Made by a program: the position numbers and the translations under genes. A DNA stretch of 64,000 nucleotides, from NCBI GenBank assembly GCA_032986305.1, contig GCA_032986305.1_3672.1; one strand, written 5' to 3'. Each line of letters begins with the position of its first letter. Within the stretch, counting starts at the first letter, position 1. Positions 7,320-45,103 of this stretch are shown in pieces. This DNA comes from a phage. The notes under the pieces were generated by a model. The model saw only the letters and a program-made list of their open reading frames with translations, did not search any database and was not told the DNA's origin.

Positions 7320-8036
7320 TTAGTTAACATCAATAGCACGACCAGACTGGTTGGCAATAGCCTCATCATTAGAGGTAGCAATAACACCAGAGTATTCGCG
7401 CTCATCTGGAGCAAGCGTCCAGGTATTGCGGTTAATGGTTTGTTCTGCCTCGGTCATCAGCAGATCTTTATCCTGAGTCAACAGAGAGCCGACAGGGATC
7501 GGGTTTTCCATCTCAGGACCAGCATACTGGTTCCACCATGTGGCATCTCCGGTTCTAGGCAACCTGAAGTTGATCAGGTAATACAGTTTATTAGCCCACT
7601 TAATCCAACCTTCATCATCACATAGAGAGGTTGTCCCAGAATCAGGTTGTGGATAGGTAAACTGATCAAGACCTACGAAAGCAAGTCTTACAATCTCGTT
7701 CTCCTTGGTAACAACCTCAAAGAACGCTTGATATGTTCTCGATCTTCGATCCATGGTAGATTGGAAGTTTATGATGTTTAGCACATCCGGCTCTTGTCTT
7801 GCCACTTCCATAATCTTGTTATCAAGAACAGTCTTCATGACTTTCTTGCTAAGAAAGTCCATATAAGGGAAGCCAAACAATTCGTCAAAGTACCAGCTCC
7901 CTTTCCAGGTATTAAACCTCATCCACAGGCGCTGGCGCAGACTTACTTGGTTCGAGTCTATCAACTTAAGACCTTTGTCTATCGCCAAATCGCCTGTCTG
8001 TGGGTCCATCAATATATCACTATAAAGCGTAGCCAT
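7320..8036 (-). CDS. baseplate protein (238 aa)
   Basis: ORF in baseplate block; function from position only. Confidence 0.35.
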   Translation of the reverse strand: MATLYSDILMDPQTGDLAIDKGLKLIDSNQVSLRQRLWMRFNTWKGSWYFDELFGFPYMDFLSKKVMKTVLDNKIMEVARQEPDVLNIINFQSTMDRRSRTYQAFFEVVTKENEIVRLAFVGLDQFTYPQPDSGTTSLCDDEGWIKWANKLYYLINFRLPRTGDATWWNQYAGPEMENPIPVGSLLTQDKDLLMTEAEQTINRNTWTLAPDEREYSGVIATSNDEAIANQSGRAIDVN

Positions 8037-22361: not shown

Positions 22362-23918
22362 TTAATTTTCCATGTTGGATATGGAATTATCTCTGGTTGA
22401 TGACATCTTAGAAGTGCCGTTGCCAGTGGATCCTGCAGCCATTCCATCGCCAGCCCTACTGATGTCCTGGCCCAAGAGCTTCATTAGCTCTTCCTGATCC
22501 ATGTCCTCGTCAAATCTTTCATCAAACCCACCTACTTCAAGAATCTTATTAATTACTGCAGGAGTTTTTGGCAAGTAACCTACAGCACCGATCCTCTGGA
22601 CAAACTTGGAGAAGCTCTCCATGTCCACCTCTTCAATCAGGCCAGGTTTCAGTTTAGGCATATCATCATCTTCAAGGATGATACCATTCAATGCCAGAAG
22701 CTGTGGAATAAGATCTTTATTGAAGGCCTCAGTGATAATATCTATATCACGCTGAACAAAATGACCATGGATAGACTGTTTTGACTCAGACAGAGAGAAG
22801 GATCCGACGTTATCGTTACCGAGGTTAATAAAGCCAGCACCGAAACGGTCAAGAATCGCCTTCTTACGGGCATCAATCAAATCTTTAGTTGAATACTGCT
22901 TGCCCATACCGTCAACCCCCTTCAGGGTCATGGAGTAAAGCTCTTTACCAGACTTATCTCTATCAGACGGAAGTATAAAGAAACTTTGCTCCCCACTATG
23001 GGCGTTTGCTGCGTCAAGCATAAGATCTGCAACCATTCTCCCTTCCATTGAATTCGGGTCAATACTGGCCTTGTTCAAAATATTGGAAGGAATTTTCAGC
23101 TCAAGCACACCACCAAGGTCTTTGGAACAGCCAACAACCTCAAGGTTTTCAATCAAAACTTTCTCACGGAAAGATCTGTAGCAACCTATCATCGGTGACA
23201 CACCTGCAGGGTTAGATTCTGTTCCTGACAGAGTCATGAGCATAAGCTTTTTAGCAGGGATGAAAATTTCAGGCTCATTAAAGCCTTTTGAAGGCATTGC
23301 AGCAAGAGGTCCAGCCCAGCGTGCATTCTGAGTGTTTAGAAATGCATTAGGTGACTGATAAATACCTGTCAGTGTTCTACTATTCTTGTCAAAGACAAAC
23401 GGCTCTGATCTGGACAGACTGGCCTGAGGTCGGAATGCAATTTTATCAATAAGGAGCATCCCGGCATATTTACCTTCTTTCTCTCTGCGGTATACTTTCT
23501 CAAACAGTGAAAAACCATACTCGTTAAAGGTAGCTGCGCTTCTTGCAATATCCCGAAGGGTTTGTTGGTTTGCTAAATTACGCAAAGAATACTCTATAAG
23601 CTCGGCAGCTTTCTTAGAGTCTTCACTTTTAACATTATAAAGGATCTTAAAATCATTGAATGCTTTCGTGATGAAAACATATTTTGTATCTAAGGCAGTA
23701 GCAACTGTGGAATCACATTTCATAGTCTCCACTGTGGCAATCAGCTGAGGCCAACGCAATTCCTCAACCATCATAGATTGCGATTCTGCCATGATTTGGG
23801 AAAGTGCGCCAGAACCGATCTCACTCATACGAACATTATGAGTTGGTGCGCCTGCGTTCCCAGATTTATTCACAGTTTTGGCTGTGGCGTTGTGTTTCCT
23901 GCGGTTCTTTTTGGACAC
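22362..23918 (-). CDS. portal protein (518 aa; start GTG or downstream ATG)
   Basis: size and position between terminase and scaffold; annotated start is GTG. Confidence 0.6.
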   Translation of the reverse strand: MSKKNRRKHNATAKTVNKSGNAGAPTHNVRMSEIGSGALSQIMAESQSMMVEELRWPQLIATVETMKCDSTVATALDTKYVFITKAFNDFKILYNVKSEDSKKAAELIEYSLRNLANQQTLRDIARSAATFNEYGFSLFEKVYRREKEGKYAGMLLIDKIAFRPQASLSRSEPFVFDKNSRTLTGIYQSPNAFLNTQNARWAGPLAAMPSKGFNEPEIFIPAKKLMLMTLSGTESNPAGVSPMIGCYRSFREKVLIENLEVVGCSKDLGGVLELKIPSNILNKASIDPNSMEGRMVADLMLDAANAHSGEQSFFILPSDRDKSGKELYSMTLKGVDGMGKQYSTKDLIDARKKAILDRFGAGFINLGNDNVGSFSLSESKQSIHGHFVQRDIDIITEAFNKDLIPQLLALNGIILEDDDMPKLKPGLIEEVDMESFSKFVQRIGAVGYLPKTPAVINKILEVGGFDERFDEDMDQEELMKLLGQDISRAGDGMAAGSTGNGTSKMSSTRDNSISNMEN

Positions 23919-23937
23919 AAGCTTTACCCCTCAAAAC

Positions 23938-23970
23938 AGTATAACAAAATAGCCCTCGTGTTAGAGGGCT
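23938..23970 (-). terminator. terminator-like hairpin between terminase and portal genes
   Basis: AGCCCTC..GAGGGCT stem followed by AUUUUGUUAU on minus strand. Confidence 0.3.
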
Positions 23971-24020
23971 AGTATCTCCGATTACTCTATTCTACCACAT
24001 CTAATTAAGATTGGCAACAC

Positions 24021-24827
24021 TTAGATAAAACGCTTGAACATAGAAGGTGATGAGATTGATGGAATCACACAAGGAAGTGCTACCTCCTCTTTCTCCAGGA
24101 AATTAATTGCAGAAGCTACACAGTCAGCCCAGTCGTCTTTTCTGTTAAATGTTGATCTTTCCCCGTTGAATTTTTCAAGTTCAGTCAGAAATGCTTCCAG
24201 AGTATCAGGATGGAAACTGGATTTTACAATCCTAACCATTCCTTGTTGGGCAAGATTGGCAAAAGGTGAGAACCTTGTCAGTTTAGATTTGTTGGAAGGC
24301 ATTGGGTCTTCTTCAACCCTAAACCCTTCGGCGAGCAAGGATCTGGAGGATGTTAAGAACTCACTCTTACCTGCCTGACCGGGGTCCACAGAGAATACGA
24401 TTATACAATCATCACCATCAAACTGCGCCTGTTTCCTGATGATCACATCTCGTTCACCAGCCTTTTTACAGAACTTGCCTTCCAGACCTGTGGAATACCT
24501 CCCGTCATCCACGTTTTCAGGACAATAATCCCCTGACAGGTAATAAAAGCCGTCGCTATCTTTACTTACCTTAACACTGGCGGTAAAGTCAGGAAATTTA
24601 TTACCGGAAGTTCTGTCGGTTCCTGCCTTATCCCATGCCCTGCAAGATACTGATCCAAGGGGTACTCTATCGGCATCACGAAGGAAAGATCTTTGAAAAT
24701 AGTTTGCACCCTCAGGCTTTGCAAACCAGTTGCCATGAAGAAGCTGGGCTTTTTCAAGCTCGGGCAGACCTTCAAGAAAAGCAAGGTATTCTGGGTTGTC
24801 TCTCAAGCAGACAGGATTATCGAATCC
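24021..24827 (-). CDS. terminase large subunit, exon 2 (nuclease domain); 5' boundary approximate
   Basis: 261-aa ORF; continues the reading frame of exon 1 after removal of the intervening intron. Confidence 0.65.
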   Translation of the reverse strand, partial: GFDNPVCLRDNPEYLAFLEGLPELEKAQLLHGNWFAKPEGANYFQRSFLRDADRVPLGSVSCRAWDKAGTDRTSGNKFPDFTASVKVSKDSDGFYYLSGDYCPENVDDGRYSTGLEGKFCKKAGERDVIIRKQAQFDGDDCIIVFSVDPGQAGKSEFLTSSRSLLAEGFRVEEDPMPSNKSKLTRFSPFANLAQQGMVRIVKSSFHPDTLEAFLTELEKFNGERSTFNRKDDWADCVASAINFLEKEEVALPCVIPSISSPSMFKRFI

Positions 24828-25804
24828 TTATATTCAAAGGTGGTCGCAACACCACCTTCCGCACCTTTACGTGCTGCTGCATGTTACCATGCAGAGTAGA
24901 CTATATCACCACCCATTTCAGGGTGCTTCGCTTTTCGAGCGCCATAAGCTTGCGCCCTACTCCCTCTCGGGATAGTCGTTGAACTACATTACCAATCGTA
25001 ATTGTTTGAAATATAGGTGTAAGTCTTACGGTCTTTTATTCCTTTAACAACACTAAAACTTACTCCCCACTTCTTAGCTATTTTATTTACACACAAGACC
25101 TTATCACTAAGATCCTCGCAGATACCTATTATCTTGTGCTCACTTATCCGATTAGAGGTTGGCACTTTTCTAAAGTTAAACTCTTTAGAAATATCTGGGT
25201 ATACTGAGCCATTCTTTATACCACTTACAAGTGGTTGATTGACACCAAACATTTCACAAATGTCTTTTACCCTTGCGCCTTGCTCTAACAGCCTACATAT
25301 TTCAAGAGCAGTGGCATCATCCAGGGACCTGTATTTATTGACATAGTCCTTTTTAAGTCCCATTTCATGAGCGTGATGTGTGTTTTCCTCAGGCGTTGTC
25401 CACTCAAGGTTCCATGCGGCGTTATTCAACTTATTACCATCTAGGTGGTTTACTTGAGTTTTCACGCTGGGATTGTCATTATCAACAAAAGTCATAGCAA
25501 TCACTCTGTGAACGAGCACTTGGAACTTTTTACCGTCCTCGCACAAAGTTACCATAGCATAGCCAGTCTTTTTCTGCACATTAGGATGGAGGAATTTATT
25601 AGAATACAGACTGTAAATTCTGCCATCGTATGTAGCACAATAATGATTGTAGCCTAAAAAGCCTAAATTTTTCATTTCAAACATCTCCCTACTACAGGTT
25701 CGGAAGGGTAATTATAGCTGCTGATTGTCCGTTTAGCAATCGGATTTCCCAGCAATTAACGAAGTTATTCGACGTGCATTTCTGCACGAAGCCACTATCA
25801 TTTA
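24828..25804 (-). mobile_element. group I intron in terminase large subunit gene, carrying an HNH homing endonuclease ORF (boundaries +/- ~20 nt)
   Basis: R-like GTTCAACGACTATC (reverse of 24962-24975) and S-like GATATAGTCT (reverse of 24897-24906) core elements; 3' core nearly identical to the nrdD intron at 53500-53545; interrupts a single terminase reading frame. Confidence 0.65.
24989..25675 (-). CDS. HNH homing endonuclease (intron-encoded)
   Basis: motif ..VHRVIAMTFVDNDNPSVKTQVNHLDGNKLNNAAWNLEW.. (HNH_3-type); ORF lies inside the intron; stop 12 nt before the R element. Confidence 0.7.
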   Translation of the reverse strand: MKNLGFLGYNHYCATYDGRIYSLYSNKFLHPNVQKKTGYAMVTLCEDGKKFQVLVHRVIAMTFVDNDNPSVKTQVNHLDGNKLNNAAWNLEWTTPEENTHHAHEMGLKKDYVNKYRSLDDATALEICRLLEQGARVKDICEMFGVNQPLVSGIKNGSVYPDISKEFNFRKVPTSNRISEHKIIGICEDLSDKVLCVNKIAKKWGVSFSVVKGIKDRKTYTYISNNYDW

Positions 25805-26547
25805 ATGGTTGCGCCTATAAACGAGAATGACAACGGTCTTGGCTTGATCTCCACACCCAGTCCGTTAACCGTGGTGTATTTCTCTATCAACTCTTCTTTA
25901 GAGTCTCCCCAAATAAATTCACCGTCGCGTCGGATAAAATATCTTTTCTTACCGCATTTCTCCGGATCTGGATACCCTTCATCGTCCAACCACCATCTAA
26001 CCAGTTTGGCAAGCATGTGTTCTGAATCGGGGTTACAGCTGATAACCATTCTTGATGGATACTTTGACTGAGATCGCAGACGAGACATCAGATAGTCTAT
26101 CTGCTCCCATTCGAACTGCGTTCCCTCATCGAAGCAAACCATGGTGTACTCAAGCCCTTGATGGTTAAGCTTATCTTGTACATACTCCATGTGGCAGTAT
26201 TTTACAACAGCTCCCTTTTTGCTCCTATCCCACTTGCCAGTGTTCGGATCAAACCGTGGAAAAATGAACTTATGATCCTTCTCTCTGAACTTTGGCTTAA
26301 TGTTTTCAGGCAGATCACTATAAATAGCTACTGCTTTAGGCCATAGTCCACCCTCACCTTCCAACTGTGGGGTTGTTCTTCGGAACATAACCACAGAGCT
26401 GTGGGGGTCATCAATAATTTTAAGCGGCATCAACTGCAAGAGGAACGACTTGCCAGACCCTGCGGCACCGCCGATTACCAAAATATCTGCATCATTTTCG
26501 AGGATCATCTTCTGCTTTTCAGAACACGGTCCGTAAATCTTAGACAT
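25805..26547 (-). CDS. terminase large subunit, exon 1 (ATPase domain); 3' boundary approximate
   Basis: Walker A GGAAGSGKS near the N-terminus; ORF ends at a stop lying just inside the intron. Confidence 0.7.
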
Positions 26548-27649: not shown

Positions 27650-27726
27650 GTGGTCTCCACGGAGTGATTCGAACACTCGACCTCCTGATCCCAAATCAGG
27701 CGCTCTACCAAGCTGAGCTACGCGGA
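27650..27726 (-). tRNA. tRNA-Pro (anticodon UGG)
   Basis: hand-folded cloverleaf: acceptor CTCCGCG/CGTGGAG, T-loop TTCGAAT, anticodon loop TTTGGGA, CCA encoded. Confidence 0.8.
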
Positions 27727-27737
27727 GTATTTACTAT

Positions 27738-27812
27738 TTGGTGGCCCTGGGTGGAATTGAACCACCGTCTGGCGATTATGAGTCGCTTGCTTGAACCTTC
27801 CAGCTACAGGGC
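27738..27812 (-). tRNA. tRNA-Met (anticodon CAU; elongator or Ile-lysidine type)
   Basis: acceptor GGCCCTG/CAGGGCC, T-loop TTCAATT, anticodon loop CTCATAA, CCA encoded. Confidence 0.75.
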
Positions 27813-27813
27813 C

Positions 27814-27889
27814 TTGGTGCTGATGGCAGGACTTGAACCTGCAACCTATTGATTACAAATCAATTGCACTACCAATTGTGCTACATCAG
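27814..27889 (-). tRNA. tRNA-Thr (anticodon UGU)
   Basis: acceptor GCTGATG/CATCAGC, D-stem GCAC/GTGC, anticodon loop TTTGTAA, T-loop TTCAAGT, CCA encoded. Confidence 0.8.
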
Positions 27890-27894
27890 CAAAA

Positions 27895-27993
27895 AGGTGC
27901 TAGGCGGTGGAATCGAACCACCTATGTATTCAACGACTACCTCGTCTATTTTCAGGATTAAAAATCCTCGCCCTTGCCAAAGGGCTTACCTAG
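27895..27993 (-). tRNA. atypical tRNA-like gene, possibly tRNA-Lys (anticodon UUU) with ~30-nt extra region; may be a pseudo-tRNA
   Basis: perfect 7-bp acceptor pairing GCTAGGT/GCCTAGC, canonical T-arm GGTGG-TTCGATT-CCACC, D-stem GCCC/GGGC, 4-bp anticodon stem with loop TTTTTAA, but ~99 nt long and no CCA. Confidence 0.35.
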
Positions 27994-28091
27994 CTCAGTA
28001 TGTTGACCATGTTGCTAGTCGGCGATGACGACTGTAACATTTGATAATCCGGTTCTGCTTCCGGCTTTCGCTTAATTACAAGGTCAACAAT

Positions 28092-28182
28092 GTGGCGGAG
28101 AGTAATGGAATCGAACCATCATCGAGTCATCCTCAATGGGACGGTTTTCAAGACCGCTTGAGCACCATTGCTCCCTACCCTC
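28092..28182 (-). tRNA. tRNA-Ser (anticodon UGA), long variable arm
   Basis: acceptor GGAGGGT/ACTCTCC, anticodon loop CTTGAAA, extended variable arm, discriminator G, CCA encoded. Confidence 0.7.
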
Positions 28183-28189
28183 CTTTATA

Positions 28190-28218
28190 AATTATACTGA
28201 TAATGACACTGATTTTCG
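28190..28218 (-). promoter_or_regulatory. sigma70-like promoter upstream of tRNA-Ser
   Basis: minus strand TCGAAA-N17-TATAAT, -10 ending 7 nt before the tRNA 5' end. Confidence 0.4.
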
Positions 28219-28296
28219 AGCAGTTAGTGACTAGTATAAACGACGATAAATATCAATGCCATTATCTGTATTATTTACGCATCTAAAAATATAAAT

Positions 28297-28383
28297 TTGG
28301 TGGGGAGTGGTGGAGTCGAACCACCCGAGTCGCAATGACAATAGATTTACAGTCTACACCGCTACCTCTACGGGATAACTCCC
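28297..28383 (-). tRNA. tRNA-Tyr (anticodon GUA)
   Basis: acceptor GGGGAGT/ACTCCCC, anticodon loop CTGTAAA, long variable arm, T-loop TTCGACT, CCA encoded. Confidence 0.75.
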
Positions 28384-28387
28384 CAAT

Positions 28388-28462
28388 TTGGCACCCCGTA
28401 CTGGACTCGAACCAGTGTCAACGGCTTAGAAGGCCGCTGCTTTATCCACTAAGCTAACAGGG
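28388..28462 (-). tRNA. tRNA-Arg (anticodon UCU)
   Basis: anticodon stem-loop GCGGC-CTTCTAA-GCCGT, T-arm ACTGG-TTCGAGT-CCAGT, CCA encoded. Confidence 0.7.
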
Positions 28463-28559
28463 CACTGGGTGGCTTTCTTTTACACCTTAGCCGCCAGAAA
28501 AGGTGGGAGACCATGTTTACAATATTACACTGTTAAGCAAAGTTTGTCAAGAAAATATT

Positions 28560-31399: not shown

Positions 31400-31954
31400 T
31401 TACTCCCCGCTGTCAATAGCAAGACTCATTGCAATACGGTATGCCTCTTCTAATGGTAAGAGTCTCCCCCACACATCCCAACCGACATCAAACTGCCTGC
31501 CAAACAACTGCTGTGTGGTTCCGTGAGCATGACCGAACAGTTGGACTGATCCGTGAGGCTTTCTGTTCCACTTTGCAAACTGGTAATGGCTCATACAGAT
31601 CAAATTCTTGTTGTGGCGAAGCTCGTAATAATCTACAACCTCATGACCGAACTCTTTCATAATTCTGACAGTCGTCCTTGTGTCATGGTTACCACGAACA
31701 AGAATAATATGTCCGTTCAACATATTTAGAACATCTGGGAGCAATTTGTTGATATTCTTATCATTAGTGCACGCAATATCTCCCAAGTGAAACACAGTGT
31801 CTGCAGGTGACACAACAGAGTTCCACTTGGTGATGATTCCCGCATTCATACTGTCAAGATTGTGATCATACTGAGATCTGTGTTTTTGACATGAATCGAA
31901 CTCCATGACCCGCTGGTGGAGAAAGTGTGTGTCGCTTGTTACAAAGTATTTCAT
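31400..31954 (-). CDS. calcineurin-like metallophosphoesterase (start at internal MKYFVTSDTHF)
   Basis: motifs D-x-H (SDTHF), GDIA, GNHD, GHAH in canonical order. Confidence 0.6.
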   Translation of the reverse strand: MKYFVTSDTHFLHQRVMEFDSCQKHRSQYDHNLDSMNAGIITKWNSVVSPADTVFHLGDIACTNDKNINKLLPDVLNMLNGHIILVRGNHDTRTTVRIMKEFGHEVVDYYELRHNKNLICMSHYQFAKWNRKPHGSVQLFGHAHGTTQQLFGRQFDVGWDVWGRLLPLEEAYRIAMSLAIDSGE

Positions 31955-31961
31955 ACATTCC

Positions 31962-32372
31962 TCATTTAAGTTTAATGCAGTTTTTAAGCTGGCGTTCCAT
32001 ACGATCCACAACCCTGTCTGGAACATCATGAATGCTTTTATTACCATGGCGGTTTTCAACCACGATCACGGTATAACTATACCCATGACTGATCGCCATG
32101 TCAATATATTCTTGCACATATTTTTCTTTTGTAAACGTATTACTTACCACGATACGGTCGTATCCCATACGCATCATATCTTCTACGTTATCTTTGCACC
32201 ATTTTGCTGCAAGTGTTACTTTACTTGCATCCCAGTTATAATTTCCATCATCGTCGTACCAGAACATGTCGTTCTCAAAATGTGGATACAGACCGTCTAA
32301 AGATAGCGCATTTGCCAGTGTTGATTTGCCAGACCCTGGCAGACCACGCACGATATATAGCATTTTAGACAT
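31962..32372 (-). CDS. P-loop polynucleotide kinase-like protein (T4 Pnk kinase-domain-like)
   Basis: Walker A ..IVRGLPGSGKST.. near N-terminus; start MSKML with GGAGGA RBS; adjacent to phosphatase and divergent from RNA ligase. Confidence 0.55.
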   Translation of the reverse strand: MSKMLYIVRGLPGSGKSTLANALSLDGLYPHFENDMFWYDDDGNYNWDASKVTLAAKWCKDNVEDMMRMGYDRIVVSNTFTKEKYVQEYIDMAISHGYSYTVIVVENRHGNKSIHDVPDRVVDRMERQLKNCIKLK

Positions 32373-32400
32373 AGTAATCCTCCGTTTTAATTTCAACGAT

Positions 32401-32429
32401 AGTATACCTGACTGTTTTGTTAATTTCAA
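32401..32429 (-). promoter_or_regulatory. sigma70-like promoter for kinase-phosphatase operon
   Basis: minus strand TTGAAA-N17-TATACT. Confidence 0.45.
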
Positions 32430-32472: not shown

Positions 32473-33408
32473 ATGACAAATGAGGAACGTATGATGAAGT
32501 ATTTTAATGCAGATGACCTAGTAGACAAAGGTCTTGTAACCAGTCGGTATTATCCAGATCTTGGATTAAAGATCTATAAATATGCCAGAAAAGTATTCTA
32601 CAACAATCTGTGGCATTTGTCTCCGCGTTTACTGGAGTGCCGAGGTATTGTTGTTGGCAATGAGGGGAATGTTGTGGCATGGCCTTTCACAAAAGTATTC
32701 AACTTAGGAGAAAACTCCACCAACCTACCGGACAGTAAACTTGTTACTGCGGTAGAGAAAAAGAACGGATTCCTTGGTGTGGTATCATCTCATAAAGGTG
32801 AACTATTGTTCTCAACAACCGGATCTCTTGATTCTCCATATTGTAACCTCACAAAGGAAACCATCCAAGAGCAATGTGGTAATTTAGATCTTATCAAGAA
32901 GGTTATGGGCAATGAAAACATGACATTCATGTTTGAAATTTGTCACCCTTCAGATCCGCATATTGTTCAGGAAGATCATGGCGCATATTTGATAGGTTGC
33001 AGATATAATGATTCTGGAATAATGCTGCCAGAAGCAGCTTTAGATGGGATTGCCAAATACCTTGGCGCAAAACGTCCTCACACTGTGCGTGAAATTCCGT
33101 TCAGCTATGCAAAAGAATTGGCTGCAGAAACAAGAGGTGAAGGGTATATGATTCGTAAGCCTTACTACCCTTATGATCTGCAGCTGAAGATCAAGTCTCC
33201 ATACTATCTGGCACGGAAGGCCGTAATGAGGGGTAAAGCTTGGAAGATTTGGGATGATGATATCTTTAAACGTGTTGACGAAGAGTTTTACGGCATGGTA
33301 AACTTCATTCGTAGCAATTACACAGAAGATGTGTGGAACTGCCTACTGGAGCAGGAACGCAGGGAGATACTCGACCACTATTTCCACAACGAGGACTATA
33401 TGCAATGA
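32473..33408 (+). CDS. RNA ligase, T4 Rnl1-like (alternative start at 32491)
   Basis: recalled T4 Rnl1 motifs: ECRGI, FNLGEN, nucleotidyltransferase motif I KKNG (K-x-[DN]-G), EGYMIRK..LKIKS. Confidence 0.6.
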   Translation: MTNEERMMKYFNADDLVDKGLVTSRYYPDLGLKIYKYARKVFYNNLWHLSPRLLECRGIVVGNEGNVVAWPFTKVFNLGENSTNLPDSKLVTAVEKKNGFLGVVSSHKGELLFSTTGSLDSPYCNLTKETIQEQCGNLDLIKKVMGNENMTFMFEICHPSDPHIVQEDHGAYLIGCRYNDSGIMLPEAALDGIAKYLGAKRPHTVREIPFSYAKELAAETRGEGYMIRKPYYPYDLQLKIKSPYYLARKAVMRGKAWKIWDDDIFKRVDEEFYGMVNFIRSNYTEDVWNCLLEQERREILDHYFHNEDYMQ

Positions 33409-33763: not shown

Positions 33764-34525
33764 ATGCGACGACTGATTATTATCTCCGGTGCTGGTTTGA
33801 GCGCTGAATCTGGTATTCCCACTTTCCGATCTGGTAGCACTGCAATGTGGGAGAATTTCAGCATCGATGAGGTGTGCAACATCCACACCTTTGCCAAGAA
33901 CTACTATAAGGTGCATGACTTTTACAATGCACGTCGTGTAGCTCTGGGCAGTGTTGATCCTAACCTTGCACATCTTCGGATCGCTGAGTGGTATTCCCGC
34001 TGGTCTGGTCGTGTGATCAACCTTACCACCAATGTAGATGATTTGCTGGAGCGTGCTGGTGTAAAACATGAAGATATTTTACATGTCCACGGGTATTTGC
34101 CTGAAATCACCTACGAAGATGCTGAAGGTAATGATGTAATTAAAAATATCGGATACACGGAGGTAGATACAGGTAAGTATACCTGGGTTAAGCCCAATGT
34201 AGTGTTCTTCGGTGAGGTTGCTCCTAAGTATACAGACATGTATGACCTGTTGACATCTCTCACAAGCAATGATATGGTGATCCTGGTAGGTTGTTCTAAC
34301 ACAGTTATTAATTTTAACTGGGAATTGTTTCCTGCTACTTGTAAAGGCACAAAACTGCTGATTGTAAACAAGTATGATTCGCAGAGTGCAGATGGAAGTG
34401 GCATTTCACGTAGCGACCTTTATCAATATGAGGATCGCGGGATCCCTGTATGGTTTAACGGTGCTGTTGACGCTTTCTCTGATAAAGTATTTATTGAAAC
34501 TGTAGAAAACTTTATGGAACTTTAA
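33764..34525 (+). CDS. SIR2-family (sirtuin-like) NAD-dependent enzyme
   Basis: motifs GAGLSAESGIPTFR, TNVDDLLERAG, catalytic-type HG, VFFGE; no obvious zinc-ribbon cysteines. Confidence 0.65.
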   Translation: MRRLIIISGAGLSAESGIPTFRSGSTAMWENFSIDEVCNIHTFAKNYYKVHDFYNARRVALGSVDPNLAHLRIAEWYSRWSGRVINLTTNVDDLLERAGVKHEDILHVHGYLPEITYEDAEGNDVIKNIGYTEVDTGKYTWVKPNVVFFGEVAPKYTDMYDLLTSLTSNDMVILVGCSNTVINFNWELFPATCKGTKLLIVNKYDSQSADGSGISRSDLYQYEDRGIPVWFNGAVDAFSDKVFIETVENFMEL

Positions 34526-34538
34526 AAGGAGACCTTTA

Positions 34539-35252
34539 ATGCTGAATACTAAACTGATCGACAACCTGGAAAAACTGTCTCAGCCTGAAAACTACCTTTG
34601 GTCTGCCAACTGGGTGGAAAACTGGAACCGTGTGGCAGCTAAGGTGAAAAAATCATACACACCATTCGAATTACAGCTTAGCTTCATTGAGGAAGAGTTC
34701 AATGAAGTTTTGGAAGAGCTGGAGAAAGGTGATGGTGGAGATCACTTGCTAAAAGAGGCCTGCGATCTTCATGTTGTCACAAGTTATGCCGCTTATCTTG
34801 TTAATGACAATCACGAAAAGTGGTCAAACCTGTTTGATAATCCACGAGGTATTAAGTTCAAGATTGGTGAGTTCTATGATACACTGATCGCTGCGAAAAA
34901 CACCTCTAAGCAAAGAGCGTCTGCTTACCGCTTAGCAGAGTTGTCAACAGCTTTGCTGTTCCAGCTTCGCGGAGATGTGTGCGGGATGATGCGTAAGGTT
35001 CTCAAATCGAATGACAGCAAGTTTGCACGGGTCAACCATCTACGGTATTCACACGGTGCCAGTGCAGATATGCCTGCTGAACAACTCATCGAGTTGGAGA
35101 TTAAAGATCTTGAGCGACGCTTTGATGGTCGATATGAAGGTTTTGTTGCTAAGGAAGAATTCTACAACGGTAATAAAGTTATCATATTCCTTGACAGTAA
35201 AGGTAAGATCATGAAGCCTTCAAGCTTCAAGGATGTAACAGGGTATATTTAA
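34539..35252 (+). CDS. hypothetical protein, possibly MazG/HisE-like nucleotide pyrophosphohydrolase domain
   Basis: N-terminal EExxE-type acidic helix pattern (..FIEEEFNEVLEELEKG..); weak. Confidence 0.3.
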   Translation: MLNTKLIDNLEKLSQPENYLWSANWVENWNRVAAKVKKSYTPFELQLSFIEEEFNEVLEELEKGDGGDHLLKEACDLHVVTSYAAYLVNDNHEKWSNLFDNPRGIKFKIGEFYDTLIAAKNTSKQRASAYRLAELSTALLFQLRGDVCGMMRKVLKSNDSKFARVNHLRYSHGASADMPAEQLIELEIKDLERRFDGRYEGFVAKEEFYNGNKVIIFLDSKGKIMKPSSFKDVTGYI

Positions 35253-35624: not shown

Positions 35625-35880
35625 TCTTGCTAAACCTGTAGAAGCCCACCAGTTTGACGGAAGCTCTTCATCAGTATCTGATCTGCAACGGTGGATTGAT
35701 ACAGGTGTGTTTACATCGTCACCTGTTCGGACCAGAGATCTTCGTCGCATGTGTGAGCTTGTCGAGCCTTTTGGTAACCTTGTCTTGTACCAAGGAGATT
35801 GGCTAGTTGACTTTATGGGAGACTGGTTGGTAATGAGTAAAGAAGAGATGTTTAAAATTTTTAAGGAAGAGGCCGAGTAA
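35611..35880 (+). CDS. hypothetical protein (89 aa)
   Basis: ORF, overlaps neighbours. Confidence 0.3.
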   Translation: MPLFNLAKPVEAHQFDGSSSSVSDLQRWIDTGVFTSSPVRTRDLRRMCELVEPFGNLVLYQGDWLVDFMGDWLVMSKEEMFKIFKEEAE

Positions 35881-37163
35881 TGCATCAAATCAAAACAACA
35901 CTGTACGCACTGAACAAAGATGGCAGCTACCAACAGTGGAAAGTATTCACTGATGGCGAAAAGGTTATCGTAGAGTTTGGCAAGCTTGACGGTAAATTGC
36001 AGTACAAAGAGACGGTATGCACACCTAAGAACGTAGGTCGTGCCAATGAGACTACAGCTGAGCAACAGGCCGAGCTTGAGGCTATCAGCAAGTGGGAAAA
36101 ACAAGTCCGTCTGGGGTATGTTGAAAACATGGAAGATTGCGAGCAGGGTGTTGATCTTTTACCCATGCTGGTGCATGACTACCTGAAGCGTGGCAAGGCA
36201 CTTAAACTACCTTGCTGGATCTTGCGTAAGTTAGATGGCCTTCGTCTGCTTGTTGTTTTCCAAAATGGTGAGCCTAAATTTATTTCCCGTGGTAATAAGT
36301 CCTACCCTATTCAAGGAAAGCTTTTAGAGCAACTTCGTTCTTTCCATTCTACCACTGGGATTAAACAACTTGATGGGGAACTATACATTCATGGTCTTCC
36401 TTTGCAGAAAATAGTGTCTCTTGCTAAACGGTGGCGAACACAGGAAGAGATTCAGGCCGAGATCGATAAAGACTATGAGGCAGATAAAAAACGCCGTCAT
36501 ACCGCAATTAAGGCAGGCTTATCAACATACAAAAACTTCAACAAGGTAGATATTCCTGTCGATGTTGAGCCTGTTCGTGATGATTTGCGTTACGGTGGGT
36601 ACTGTAGCTACGATCTTGAGTATCACATTTTTGATATTCCTAGCGACAAGGTGTGGTGGGATCCAGAAACAGAGTCTGGACGCTGCAAGGATCTTATGGA
36701 TGCAGAGGATACCGTTACCACTCTGATGCTTGACCATATCAAGGTTGTTGACGCAGAGCTTGCGTACACAGTTGATCATTGCGAAGAATCTGTTGGTATA
36801 TTCATGTCCGAAGGATATGAAGGTACTATCATGCGTAATTTCTGCGGTAAATATGAGTATGGTCAGAGAACATCTGAAGCATTGAAATGGAAAAAGTTCA
36901 ACGACGCAGAGGTGAAAGTTATTGACGTTGAGAAAGATAAGAATGATGAAGGTGTTCTTATCTGTGTTGACAAGGAAGGTGTTGTTGTTAAAATGAAGAT
37001 GAAAGGCACGCACGAGGAGCGTAGCTATGACAGGATGCAGGAAATGATCGGCAAGTTTGTCACCTTCAAATATCAAGCAAGGACAGAAGACAACAACTAC
37101 CAATTCCCTGTCGGTATCTGCGTCCGAAATGTTAACCCAGACACTTGGGAGGTGCTGGAATAA
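35880..37163 (+). CDS. ATP-dependent DNA ligase
   Basis: motif I K-L-D-G-L-R (..ILRKLDGLRLLVV..), motif IV/V-like EGTIMR and LKWKKF, OB-fold-like C-terminus. Confidence 0.65.
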   Translation: MHQIKTTLYALNKDGSYQQWKVFTDGEKVIVEFGKLDGKLQYKETVCTPKNVGRANETTAEQQAELEAISKWEKQVRLGYVENMEDCEQGVDLLPMLVHDYLKRGKALKLPCWILRKLDGLRLLVVFQNGEPKFISRGNKSYPIQGKLLEQLRSFHSTTGIKQLDGELYIHGLPLQKIVSLAKRWRTQEEIQAEIDKDYEADKKRRHTAIKAGLSTYKNFNKVDIPVDVEPVRDDLRYGGYCSYDLEYHIFDIPSDKVWWDPETESGRCKDLMDAEDTVTTLMLDHIKVVDAELAYTVDHCEESVGIFMSEGYEGTIMRNFCGKYEYGQRTSEALKWKKFNDAEVKVIDVEKDKNDEGVLICVDKEGVVVKMKMKGTHEERSYDRMQEMIGKFVTFKYQARTEDNNYQFPVGICVRNVNPDTWEVLE

Positions 37164-44489: not shown

Positions 44490-45103
44490 TGGATATTATT
44501 GTTCTTAACGCCCCACCTAGCAGCGGCAAGGATCACATTGCAGATCTCTTGTTGGAAGCTATTCCTAACTCACACCACCGTGAGGTTAAGGAGATGCTCT
44601 TCAGTGTGGCAATTAAGGCAGCTGGTGTAACTCCTCAACTCTGGAATGCACTTTATGACCGCCACTACAAAGAAGAGCCTTGCCCTTTCTTAATGATAGA
44701 CGGCAAGCATGTTTCTCCGCGAGAGTGGATGATCCATTGTAGTGAAAATCTGATTAAACCTATCTTTGGTGAAGATGCTTTCGGTAAGGCCGCAGTCACA
44801 TCCTTGAAGAAAGATTTCCCTAAAGGTAAAGGGGTTGTTGTTTACTCCGATGGTGGATTCAAAGAGGAGCTGGCATGCCTTAGTGAGTACGCATACAGCA
44901 CAGGTGGAGATCTGTTGTTGTTCCGTATTCACCGTGTCGGATATGACTGGGGAAATGATTCCAGAACCTATCTAAGCCTGGAAAAGAACGGAATAAAAGG
45001 GATTGAGTTCGATGTTGTAAATCCTGAAGGTGCACCTTGGGAATGTGCATCGGAGATTGTGTGCAAGTATATTGATGCTAAAGAGGCCCAAGAAGAATGT
45101 TAA
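44486..45103 (+). CDS. P-loop nucleotide kinase-like protein (possible dNMP kinase)
   Basis: N-terminal ..IVLNAPPSSGKD.. P-loop-like; in nucleotide metabolism cluster. Confidence 0.4.
   Translation: MMDIIVLNAPPSSGKDHIADLLLEAIPNSHHREVKEMLFSVAIKAAGVTPQLWNALYDRHYKEEPCPFLMIDGKHVSPREWMIHCSENLIKPIFGEDAFGKAAVTSLKKDFPKGKGVVVYSDGGFKEELACLSEYAYSTGGDLLLFRIHRVGYDWGNDSRTYLSLEKNGIKGIEFDVVNPEGAPWECASEIVCKYIDAKEAQEEC

Follow-up and report, generated by a model that had tools for sequence, protein, structure and literature searches.

Sequence evidence for a conserved tRNA-like RNA with an undersized anticodon arm in the tRNA arrays of Vequintavirinae phages

Cleavage of tRNA is a major bacterial antiviral strategy, used by PrrC, PARIS, retron Eco7 and the Schlafens. 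The target of PrrC is tRNA-Lys(UUU) (PMC10264068), which is also the target of PARIS AriB, where it is cut in the anticodon stem at 40/41 (PMC12409363, PMC11464382), and of the bacterial Schlafen RorSlfn5 (PMC13056530). Phages are known to answer in two ways, by tRNA repair and by nuclease-resistant replacement tRNAs; the T5 tRNA-Lys (versus PARIS) and tRNA-Tyr (versus retron Eco7) are phage tRNAs that differ near the nuclease target (PMC11464382, PMC12409363, PMC11555353, PMC10264068). Other RNAs depart further from ordinary tRNA, such as the allo-tRNAs, in which a single scaffold carries many 'anticodons' (PMC5389517, PMC7609411), the small RNAs species 1 and 2 (rnaC, rnaD) of the T4 tRNA cluster, which are matured with the tRNAs, and YrlA (RF02553), a non-decoding RNA with a tRNA-like D/T elbow and a genomic link to RNA repair genes. 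Here a tRNA-like element is described from a stretch of phage DNA of 64,000 nucleotides (nts) (NCBI GenBank assembly GCA_032986305.1, contig GCA_032986305.1_3672.1; the whole stretch is called the window below), together with the family of RNAs to which it belongs.

Over the 2 kb surrounding the element, the window shares 99% identity with Escherichia phage rV5, LL12 and Murica and with over 100 further Vequintavirus genomes, and by this identity the source is an rV5-like E. coli phage (Vequintavirus). The element is a 97-nt cloverleaf on the minus strand of the window, between the genes for tRNA-Ser and tRNA-Thr. The original prediction of an atypical tRNA-like gene inside the tRNA array is borne out by ARAGORN, Rfam and 24 homologues; its position, 27895-27993, was right to within one base, but the gene is on the minus strand and occupies 27898-27994 up to the discriminator. 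ARAGORN, proposed as a check, calls a 'tRNA-???' with a four-base anticodon at 27896-27994 (-). The Rfam tRNA model (RF00005) scores 31.0 bits at 27898-27994 (-), with a gathering score of 29, in a sensitive search of 1.1 kb only, and the element was not detected by a default Rfam search of the whole 64-kb window. All 4227 Rfam families were scanned in default and sensitive modes and gave only this marginal tRNA match, with YrlA, tmRNA and tRNA-Sec matches far under threshold.

Sensitive BLAST found the element in other phage groups that do not have the spacer lying upstream of it in the window. Homologues were found in Avunavirus (Av-05, 92% identity), in Seunavirus (NINP13076, PVP-SE1, SSE121, GAP31, EspYZU15 and FENT2) and in Mydovirus (KB57, Mydo, Ro1 and AV124). 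Motif scans of IMG/VR and metagenomes added further copies, all on Vequintavirinae-like contigs of ~120-150 kb or fragments of such contigs, and a relaxed motif recovered only one more locus in IMG/VR. The core motif had no match, bacterial or prophage, in 185,579 bacterial and archaeal species (one genome each). After de-duplication, the alignment (A1) held 24 distinct homologues from at least five Vequintavirinae lineages, and these are the 24 copies referred to throughout.

Twenty pairs were counted in A1, namely those of the acceptor, D and T stems, three from the anticodon stem and the tertiary pair 19:56, and standard pairs were found in 480 of the 480 pair cells (100%). Column shuffles of the alignment gave 85% standard pairs, with none of 500 attaining the observed value, and sliding the 3' partners by 1-3 columns lowered pairing to 34-47%. 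Both sides have changed in ten of the 20 pairs. The elbow pair is G19:C56 in 16 copies and U19:A56 in eight, without a mismatch: the D loop UUUGGCAA goes with the T loop UUCGAUU, and the D loop UUUGUCAA with UUAGAUU. This is exactly the change expected if selection acts on the contact of the D loop with the T loop in an L-shaped fold, although the eight U19:A56 sequences are related and may reflect one double event. The acceptor pairing is not coincidental, as all 24 homologues keep seven pairs. The single window sequence folds better than 200 of 200 shuffles (z = -3.37). RNAalifold recovers the cloverleaf from A1, and the stack of a 7-bp acceptor and a 5-bp T stem (7/5) is present in 24/24 homologues. 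A covariance model built from A1 (R1) finds one copy per genome fragment at 96-117 bits (105.5 for the window copy) and gives ordinary tRNAs, including class II tRNA-Ser and tRNA-Tyr, at most 26 bits. On this comparative evidence the element is almost certainly a real, conserved and structured tRNA-like RNA. Its covariation shows a family of selected RNAs, predicted to be L-shaped, with one member per genome and apparently limited to the tRNA arrays of Vequintavirinae; the members are in Vequintavirus, Avunavirus, Seunavirus, Mydovirus and metagenomic relatives.

The 5' half of the RNA reads GCUAGGU AA GCCC UUUGGCAA GGGC G AGGA UUUUUAA UCCU G AAAAUA, and the 3' half GACGA-GGUAG-UCGUU GAAUACAUA GGUGG UUCGAUU CCACC GCCUAGC A CCU. 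Its parts in the window are as follows.

27898..27994, minus strand: tRNA-like element, G1 at 27994 and discriminator A73 at 27898
27988..27994 with 27899-27905, minus strand: acceptor stem, GCUAGGU with GCCUAGC, 7/7 pairs in 24/24 homologues
27970..27985, minus strand: D arm, stem GCCC/GGGC and loop UUUGGCAA (G18 G19), 3/4 stem pairs covary
27953..27969, minus strand: anticodon-arm equivalent, 15 nt between the invariant G26 and G44
27923..27952, minus strand: variable region, 30 nt, with GAAAA and AAUACAUA invariant in A1
27947-27952, minus strand: 5' linker of the variable region, AAAAUA
27932-27946, minus strand: hairpin of the variable region, GACGA-GGUAG-UCGUU, 5 bp
27923-27931, minus strand: 3' linker of the variable region, GAAUACAUA
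27906..27922, minus strand: T arm, GGUGG UUCGAUU CCACC, with a canonical T loop

The acceptor stem, described beforehand as perfect, does have seven pairs, but only six are Watson-Crick and the seventh is a U7-G66 wobble, for which rV5 has U7-A66; compensatory changes occur at four of its pairs. The predicted D stem and canonical T arm are both present on the minus strand. T-stem pair 51-63 covaries (U-A/C-G), as does C56 with G19 of the D loop. The D arm can be extended to a 6-bp stem with the 4-nt loop UGGC, as in tRNA-Sec, and RNAalifold predicts six pairs; the extra pairs are invariant in the alignment and so have no covariation support. Position 8 is an invariant A (27987 in the window) where U8 is usual, and positions 14 and 15 are U, so that the canonical core pairs U8:A14 and R15:Y48 are not formed in this family. 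CCA is not encoded in the window, as had been noted: the discriminator A73 is followed by CCU (C27897, C27896, U27895) and then by a run of U up to G1 of tRNA-Thr at 27890, a gap of 7 nt between the two genes.

The 30 extra nts predicted between the anticodon and T arms are present, with their 5-bp hairpin. They are not explained as a recent insertion into a tRNA, since a long variable region with conserved linkers is found in 24/24 homologues. Across the family the region measures 30-40 nt, with a 5' linker of 6-7 nt and a 3' linker of 8-10 nt, and its flanks are invariant, GAAAA at the start and AAUACAUA directly 5' of the T stem. The hairpin between them exists in at least four unrelated sequence types of differing length, every one of which pairs, and near-identical scaffolds can carry different types, as in GAP31 versus FENT2. 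A terminator-like role for the hairpin was rejected, as the stem is weak (-3.7 kcal/mol) and no U tract lies 3' of it; the 'terminator-like' matches of the scan correspond to the T arm or the D arm followed by U-rich sequence. As a candidate antisense seed, the linker AAUACAUA has no complement elsewhere in the window. Two further candidate contacts were examined by eye. A helix of tandem sheared G.A pairs between the linkers and a kissing contact of the anticodon loop (UCCA) with the variable loop (UGGA) each fit some subtypes, but neither is conserved in the FENT2, AV124 and L024 types, and both were set aside.

The anticodon arm departs most from the tRNA pattern. In canonical tRNA, 17 nt separate positions 26 and 44. 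In the 24 copies, the spacing from G26 to G44 is 15 nt in rV5, Av-05 and the L024 group and 16 nt in Seunavirus and Mydovirus. In the window, G26 (27969) is followed by AGGAU (27964-27968), UUUUA (27959-27963), AUCCU (27954-27958) and G44 (27953). The same bases can be read as the arm originally proposed, a 4-bp stem AGGA/UCCU with the 7-nt loop UUUUUAA (27958-27964) and the 'anticodon' UUU at 27960-27962; this arm is present, though a fifth pair (U-A) is possible and leaves a loop of 5 nt. A family member can thus be read with 5 bp closing a loop of 5 or 6 nt, or else with 4 bp closing one of 7 or 8 nt; none of the 24 shows the canonical combination of 5 bp and 7 nt. If the stem is taken as 5 bp, C-G occupies pair 31-39 in 12 copies, U-A in nine and C.A in three, and pair 30-40 is U-A, A-U or C-G. 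Position '33' is U, A or C across the 24 copies. The loops, given on the 5-bp reading, and the 3' ends that accompany them are as follows.

rV5 type (5 copies): loop UUUUA; A73, then CCU (4) or CAU (1)
Av-05 type (2 copies): loop UUAUA; U73 or C73, then ACA
metagenomic group (5 copies): loop AUCAA, also read (C/U)AUCAAA; U73-CCA
Seunavirus and Mydovirus: loop CAUCCA (8), CUUCCA, CAGCCA, CCUCCA and CCUCAA (1 each); U73-CCA

U73-CCA is thus encoded in 17 of the 24 copies. With the 7-nt-loop reading, UUU together with A73 is found in the copies of the window, rV5, L011, L043 and L047, and A73 occurs in the UUU type only. Elsewhere the loops have UAU (Av-05 and L035) or are of UCC, GCC or UCA type (the remaining 17 homologues), UCA-like loops being confined to six metagenomic or NINP13076 copies. 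UUU and A73 form the identity set of E. coli lysyl-tRNA synthetase (LysRS), and positions 30-40 of the element (GAUUUUUAAUC) share 10 of 11 bases with those of E. coli tRNA-Lys(UUU) (GACUUUUAAUC), the sequence of which was checked in 5426 genomes. The predicted lysine-type anticodon therefore stands for this phage, with its A73 and 10/11 match, but it is not a property of the family; judged from the alignment, it is specific to the rV5-type clade. The Av-05 and rV5 types differ by two compensatory stem changes, one base of the variable loop, the middle 'anticodon' base and the 3' end. Because the Av-05 types have swapped the anticodon base, the discriminator and the 3' end yet kept the stems, the selected function would appear to be independent of a lysine anticodon. 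NINP13076 carries the element alongside an ordinary tRNA-Lys(CUU), and rV5 is without any other tRNA-Lys. In the L034 copy, the loop with its closing pair, C-CUUCCA-G, equals that of E. coli tRNA-Gly(UCC), C-CUUCCAA-G (a sequence that was also checked), less one A, and the Gly-like copies have U73, G1-C72 and C2-G71. The 151.9-kb metagenomic Vequintavirinae-like contig L036, whose element copy has a UCA-type loop, also carries a CUA tRNA of amber-suppressor type at 7862-7934, called 'Pyl' by ARAGORN; a crude comparison of ORF lengths for stop-codon recoding in the contigs with UCA-type loops was uninformative.

Compared with these described systems, the element shares with E. coli tRNA-Lys(UUU) and RF00005 the 7/5 stack, a TPsiC-type T loop, G18G19, G19:C56 and a position within a tRNA operon, and in the rV5 clade also UUU, A37, A38 and A73. 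It is unlike canonical tRNA in having A8 for U8, U14/U15 for A14/R15, an arm of 15 nt for 17 and CCU for CCA. Moreover, its 30-nt variable region has single-stranded linkers of 6 and 9 nt, unlike the canonical variable region of 4-5 nt or the class II arm that follows directly after position 45, and its orthologues, unlike tRNA-Lys, do not have a conserved anticodon. With tRNA-Sec (RF01852) it has in common the possible 6-bp D stem and 4-nt loop, the missing U8:A14 pair and a long extra arm, and the E. coli tRNA-Sec loop, CUUCAAA, is one base from the UCA loops of some homologues. It differs from tRNA-Sec in being 7/5 rather than 8/5, in having U73 or A73 rather than G73, in a hairpin set off by long linkers and in a loop that is not 7 nt with U33; the NINP13076 copy, for which tRNA-Sec is the best Rfam match, reaches a sub-threshold 31.4 bits (gathering score 47). 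The many 'anticodons' on one scaffold recall the allo-tRNAs, but these have an acceptor/T configuration of 8/4 or 9/3 (PMC5389517) and the element is 7/5 in 24/24. T4 species 1 and 2 are the closest precedent in kind, though not homologous: these RNAs are 119-139 nt and not full cloverleaves. A point of likeness is that rnaC ends in a T-arm-like hairpin, CCGGGUUCGAAUCCCGG. R1 found no match in the rnaC/rnaD region of T4 (L049:1409-1672), only tRNA-Thr and tRNA-Leu at ~24 bits. The T5 case is similar in that a phage gene gives a tRNA-Lys-like molecule unlike its host counterpart near the nuclease target, and in that the element lies beside tRNA-Thr(UGU) in a phage that also has tRNA repair genes. 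The T5 tRNAs are, however, otherwise canonical and demonstrably decoding, with few point changes, whereas the element departs from tRNA geometry and has relatives with other loops. YrlA, finally, ends in a Ro-binding stem where the element ends in an acceptor stem; YrlA scores in the window were 16.6-25 bits against a gathering score of 69, with matches that overlap ordinary tRNAs, and no Ro/Rsr gene was seen.

The array that carries the element was delimited with ARAGORN and Rfam. Every tRNA gene in it is on the minus strand, and the same layout is annotated in rV5, LL12 and Murica.

27651..28463, minus strand: tRNA array carrying the element
28522..28550, minus strand: sigma-70-like promoter TTGACA-17-TAATAT upstream of tRNA-Arg (consensus scan, 10/12 matches)
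28389-28463, minus strand: tRNA-Arg(UCU)
28298-28384, minus strand: tRNA-Tyr(GUA)
28093-28183, minus strand: tRNA-Ser(UGA)
27995-28092, minus strand: spacer of 98 nt between tRNA-Ser and the element
27815-27890, minus strand: tRNA-Thr(UGU)
27739-27813, minus strand: tRNA-Met(CAU)
27651-27727, minus strand: tRNA-Pro(UGG)

The promoter, labelled 'P(tRNA)' at the same site by the authors of rV5 (NC_011041), likely drives the whole array. The spacer contains ~70 nt (AATTAAGCGAA..CCGGAAGCAGAACCGGAT..CAAATG.GTACAG.CGTCATCGCCG.C.AGCAACA) that recur at 83-88% identity in three other settings: phage lambda, in an unannotated stretch at ~44866-44952 between orf-64 and S; P7, ~560 nt downstream of tRNA-Asn and tRNA-Thr; and E. 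coli, where 426 of 5426 genomes carry the block, never annotated, on lambdoid prophages or P1-like plasmids. This block forms two predicted hairpins, the second of which covaries (GUCG..CGAC versus GGCG..CGCC), and has no Rfam match; it looks like an undescribed structured element of phage tRNA and late-leader regions.

In the genera examined, tRNA-Thr(UGU) is a neighbour or near neighbour of the element, which begins 2 nt past the CCA that ends the tRNA before it in Av-05, Seunavirus and L036. A tRNA-Ile(GAU) with C33 where U33 is near-universal is found just upstream of the element at L006:2419-2494 and at ~1411-1485 in L018/L019 (loops ACGAUUC and ACGAUAG), in a slot that FENT2 and GAP31 fill with an Arg(GCG)-type tRNA with C37; a variable tRNA slot with rule-breaking anticodon loops thus adjoins the element in Seunavirus and Mydovirus. 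On its 3' side, several Seunavirus and Avunavirus genomes have a conserved unannotated stretch (L006:2606-2920, L005:2600-2960, L014, L015 and L017) that starts AGUGCAUUAGCUCAGAUUAUUUGA, resembling a tRNA acceptor and the start of a D arm; neither ARAGORN nor Rfam makes a call there, and it may be another non-canonical RNA. A conserved ORF of 112 aa by the arrays (phrog_3330), whose protein has a basic N-terminus and an acidic C-terminus, was considered as an RNA partner and rejected, having no known domain and no sign of a link.

As predicted, genes of RNA-repair type lie near, at 3.4-5.4 kb from the element.

31400-32059, minus strand: metallophosphoesterase (Pfam Metallophos; PHROGs phosphoesterase)
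31962-32429, minus strand: P-loop/PNK-like kinase (Pfam AAA_33; PHROGs polynucleotide kinase)
32473-33408, plus strand: Rnl1-type RNA ligase (Pfam RNA_lig_T4_1; PHROGs RNA ligase)

Homologues of the ligase are found in other Vequintavirinae and in many unrelated phages. The other ORFs of the window, scanned for tRNA-related enzymes, gave only nucleotide metabolism and DNA enzymes. A phage Sir2-family protein (33764-34525, plus strand) directly follows the ligase and, adjoining RNA repair genes, may merit a separate look; beyond it are a PHROG match to a nucleotide pyrophosphohydrolase (34539-35252, plus strand) and an ATP-dependent DNA ligase (35880-37163, plus strand). On the other side of the array, the terminase large-subunit gene is in pieces (22362-26547, minus strand) with an HNH homing-endonuclease ORF (24989-25684) between them, a split annotated likewise in rV5 (ORF64ABC and ORF65) and termed intron-containing in LL12.

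The element is absent or broken in some relatives. In Escherichia phage V18 (L007:2451-2547), a natural deletion has left the 5' part of tRNA-Tyr joined to the element's 3' half; lost are the 3' half of tRNA-Tyr, tRNA-Ser, the lambda-like spacer and the element's 5' half, and the junction falls within the two variable arms. The more distant contigs L052-L055 have Arg and Tyr tRNAs only.

We tentatively favour the reading that the element is a non-decoding tRNA mimic, processed like a tRNA, that occupies a tRNA-binding protein, perhaps as bait for a nuclease of tRNA-Lys. The gene layout suggests that the promoter upstream of tRNA-Arg would transcribe it together with the phage tRNAs and that the host tRNA machinery would excise it, with RNase P acting at the 5' end followed by 3' trimming. 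In the rV5 clade the CCA-adding enzyme would have to supply the terminal A, because only CC is encoded; T4 tRNAs without an encoded CCA are likewise completed by this enzyme. The elbow and the acceptor, T and D arms together give the L-shape of a tRNA, and the anatomy suggests that such an RNA could occupy a tRNA-binding protein rather than decode codons. The undersized arm in all members, the 30-40-nt variable region with its conserved single-stranded linkers, the varying loop and position 33, and the changed 'anticodons' with retained structure argue that ordinary decoding is probably not its function, and a conventional decoder is thus somewhat improbable. The most speculative step is that the arm of the rV5 clade copies the tRNA-Lys(UUU) stem-loop and serves as bait or competitive substrate for PrrC, PARIS AriB or a Schlafen-type nuclease, which would complement the kinase, phosphatase and Rnl1 repair genes of the phage; on its own, this specific role is doubtful. 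Extended to the family, the element might be a 'bait tRNA', a conserved L-shaped scaffold that is matured and given a CCA tail but whose geometry does not permit decoding, with an exchangeable arm tip copying whichever host tRNA the local defence nucleases attack. The tips would be those of tRNA-Lys in rV5-type phages of E. coli and tRNA-Gly-like or UCA-type elsewhere, often with U33 replaced, and the RNA would act as an uncleavable or sacrificial nuclease inhibitor; we regard this extension as quite unlikely. Several observations weigh against a mimic. The 7-nt loop UUUUUAA of the rV5 clade is fully canonical (Y32, U33, A37, A38) and goes with A73. A bona fide tRNA-Ile(GAU) of Seunavirus and Mydovirus has C33, and with such neighbours an unusual loop is not enough by itself to dismiss decoding. 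Any stoichiometric decoy would face competition from abundant host tRNA-Lys, to our knowledge the known nucleases do not explain the Gly-like or UCA-like loops of other genera, and the element is dispensable in V18 and L052-L055.

The main rival makes the rV5-type copy a working but structurally unusual decoding tRNA-Lys(UUU), charged by LysRS through UUU and A73, which would supply lysine decoding once host tRNA-Lys has been destroyed and would itself escape the nuclease because its stem is shortened, a nucleotide is missing and its variable arm is large. The escape of T5 tRNA-Lys from PARIS is a precedent, and cases are documented in which a phage tRNA takes the place of a host tRNA targeted by a nuclease (PMC11464382, PMC11555353). 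The loop U32-U33-UUU-A37-A38 with A73, which is confined to the UUU-type copies, the 10/11 bases shared with the anticodon stem-loop of E. coli tRNA-Lys, the tRNAscan-based label tRNA-Lys in LL12 and the BASEL phages, and the standing of the element as the sole tRNA-Lys candidate of rV5 all point the same way, as does its position beside tRNA-Thr(UGU), which is the other target of PARIS (PMC12409363). Against this, a 7-nt loop leaves a stem of 4 bp and a G.G juxtaposition, one layer below any standard bacterial tRNA (the canonical stem rules are restated in PMC7609411), the LL12 annotators themselves flagged the tRNAscan isotype as inconsistent, and CCA is not encoded. In the sister genus the orthologue retains the structure with UAU in its loop, U73 or C73 as discriminator and CCA absent, and most family members have 6-nt or 8-nt loops. 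On balance we consider a decoding tRNA-Lys unlikely.

An RNA that is aminoacylated without decoding, whether it gives the amino acid to a non-ribosomal reaction or acts as a sponge for synthetases, would account for an arm and discriminator that track the identity of aminoacyl-tRNA synthetases, Lys in rV5 and Gly-like (UCC/GCC) in Seunavirus and Mydovirus. The 17 copies with U73-CCA have loops ending in NCC-A or UCA-A, the L034 loop is that of tRNA-Gly(UCC) less one A, and the discriminator is A only where the loop is UUU. This explanation is nevertheless improbable: the synthetase identity rules behind it are general background knowledge, pair 3:70 is C-G or A-U and not the G3-C70 of tRNA-Gly, UAU with U73 in Av-05 corresponds to none of the identity sets, the window yielded no aminoacyl-transferase gene, and the correlation of discriminator and loop may be one lineage event. 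The element might instead be tRNA-shaped punctuation that recruits RNase P and 3' enzymes and has no role of its own, in rV5 freeing the neighbouring 98-nt lambda-like spacer RNA. Tight packing in the tRNA operons and the place of the rV5-type element directly 3' of a conserved structured spacer fit such a processing or stability module. RNase P, however, needs only the acceptor/T-arm stack and the elbow, yet the anticodon stem and variable hairpin are also kept by compensatory changes and the linkers are invariant; moreover, Av-05, Seunavirus and Mydovirus have no spacer RNA to release, and we hold this to be very improbable. Least credible is that a tRNA pseudogene is decaying here or that the cloverleaf arose by chance. 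The low Rfam score, the miss in the default search, the lack of CCA in the rV5 clade and the loss of the element in V18 and L052-L055 could be so explained, and a pseudo-tRNA was among the possibilities raised initially. The complete pairing, the compensatory changes across genera that include the tertiary elbow pair, and the single copy per genome found by R1 exclude it for practical purposes, and covariation effectively refutes it.

Existing annotation of the element is inconsistent. It is not annotated in the GenBank record of rV5; it is a tRNA-Lys with the annotators' remark 'isotype prediction inconsistent' in LL12, tRNA-Stop(tta) in SophiaRose, tRNA-OTHER (Asp|Gly) in Murica and tRNA-Lys, by tRNAscan-based annotation, in the BASEL phages. 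Most Seunavirus, Mydovirus and Avunavirus records leave it unannotated or under tiny 'hypothetical protein' calls. ARAGORN makes no call on the Av-05, NINP13076, L036 and L048 copies, and RF00005 at E <= 0.01 lists no match for those of Av-05, NINP13076, PVP-SE1 and Mydo. No paper that names the element came up in literature searches, which also covered the tRNAs of rV5, tRNA-like decoys of phages and allo-tRNAs. As an observation on the records themselves, ~20 GenBank entries of 'Campylobacter phage' (MG0656xx; A12a, C2, D1 and others), labelled as phages of Campylobacter jejuni, are 99% identical to E. coli rV5-like phages over the region of the element, an identity that suggests mislabelled hosts or contaminating coliphages.

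A covariance model for this family would mend the inconsistent GenBank labels and stop false 'suppressor tRNA' calls. If the rV5-type copy is a working tRNA-Lys, it would stretch the known structural limits of bacterial translation, with an anticodon stem of 4 bp and a variable region of 30 nt. If the element is instead a mimic or bait, it would be a third phage answer to tRNA cleavage, and as a 'bait tRNA' a form of RNA-based anti-defence distinct from both tRNA replacement and tRNA repair, carried by a large and therapeutically used subfamily that includes rV5-like and PVP-SE1-like phages and their Klebsiella and Cronobacter relatives.

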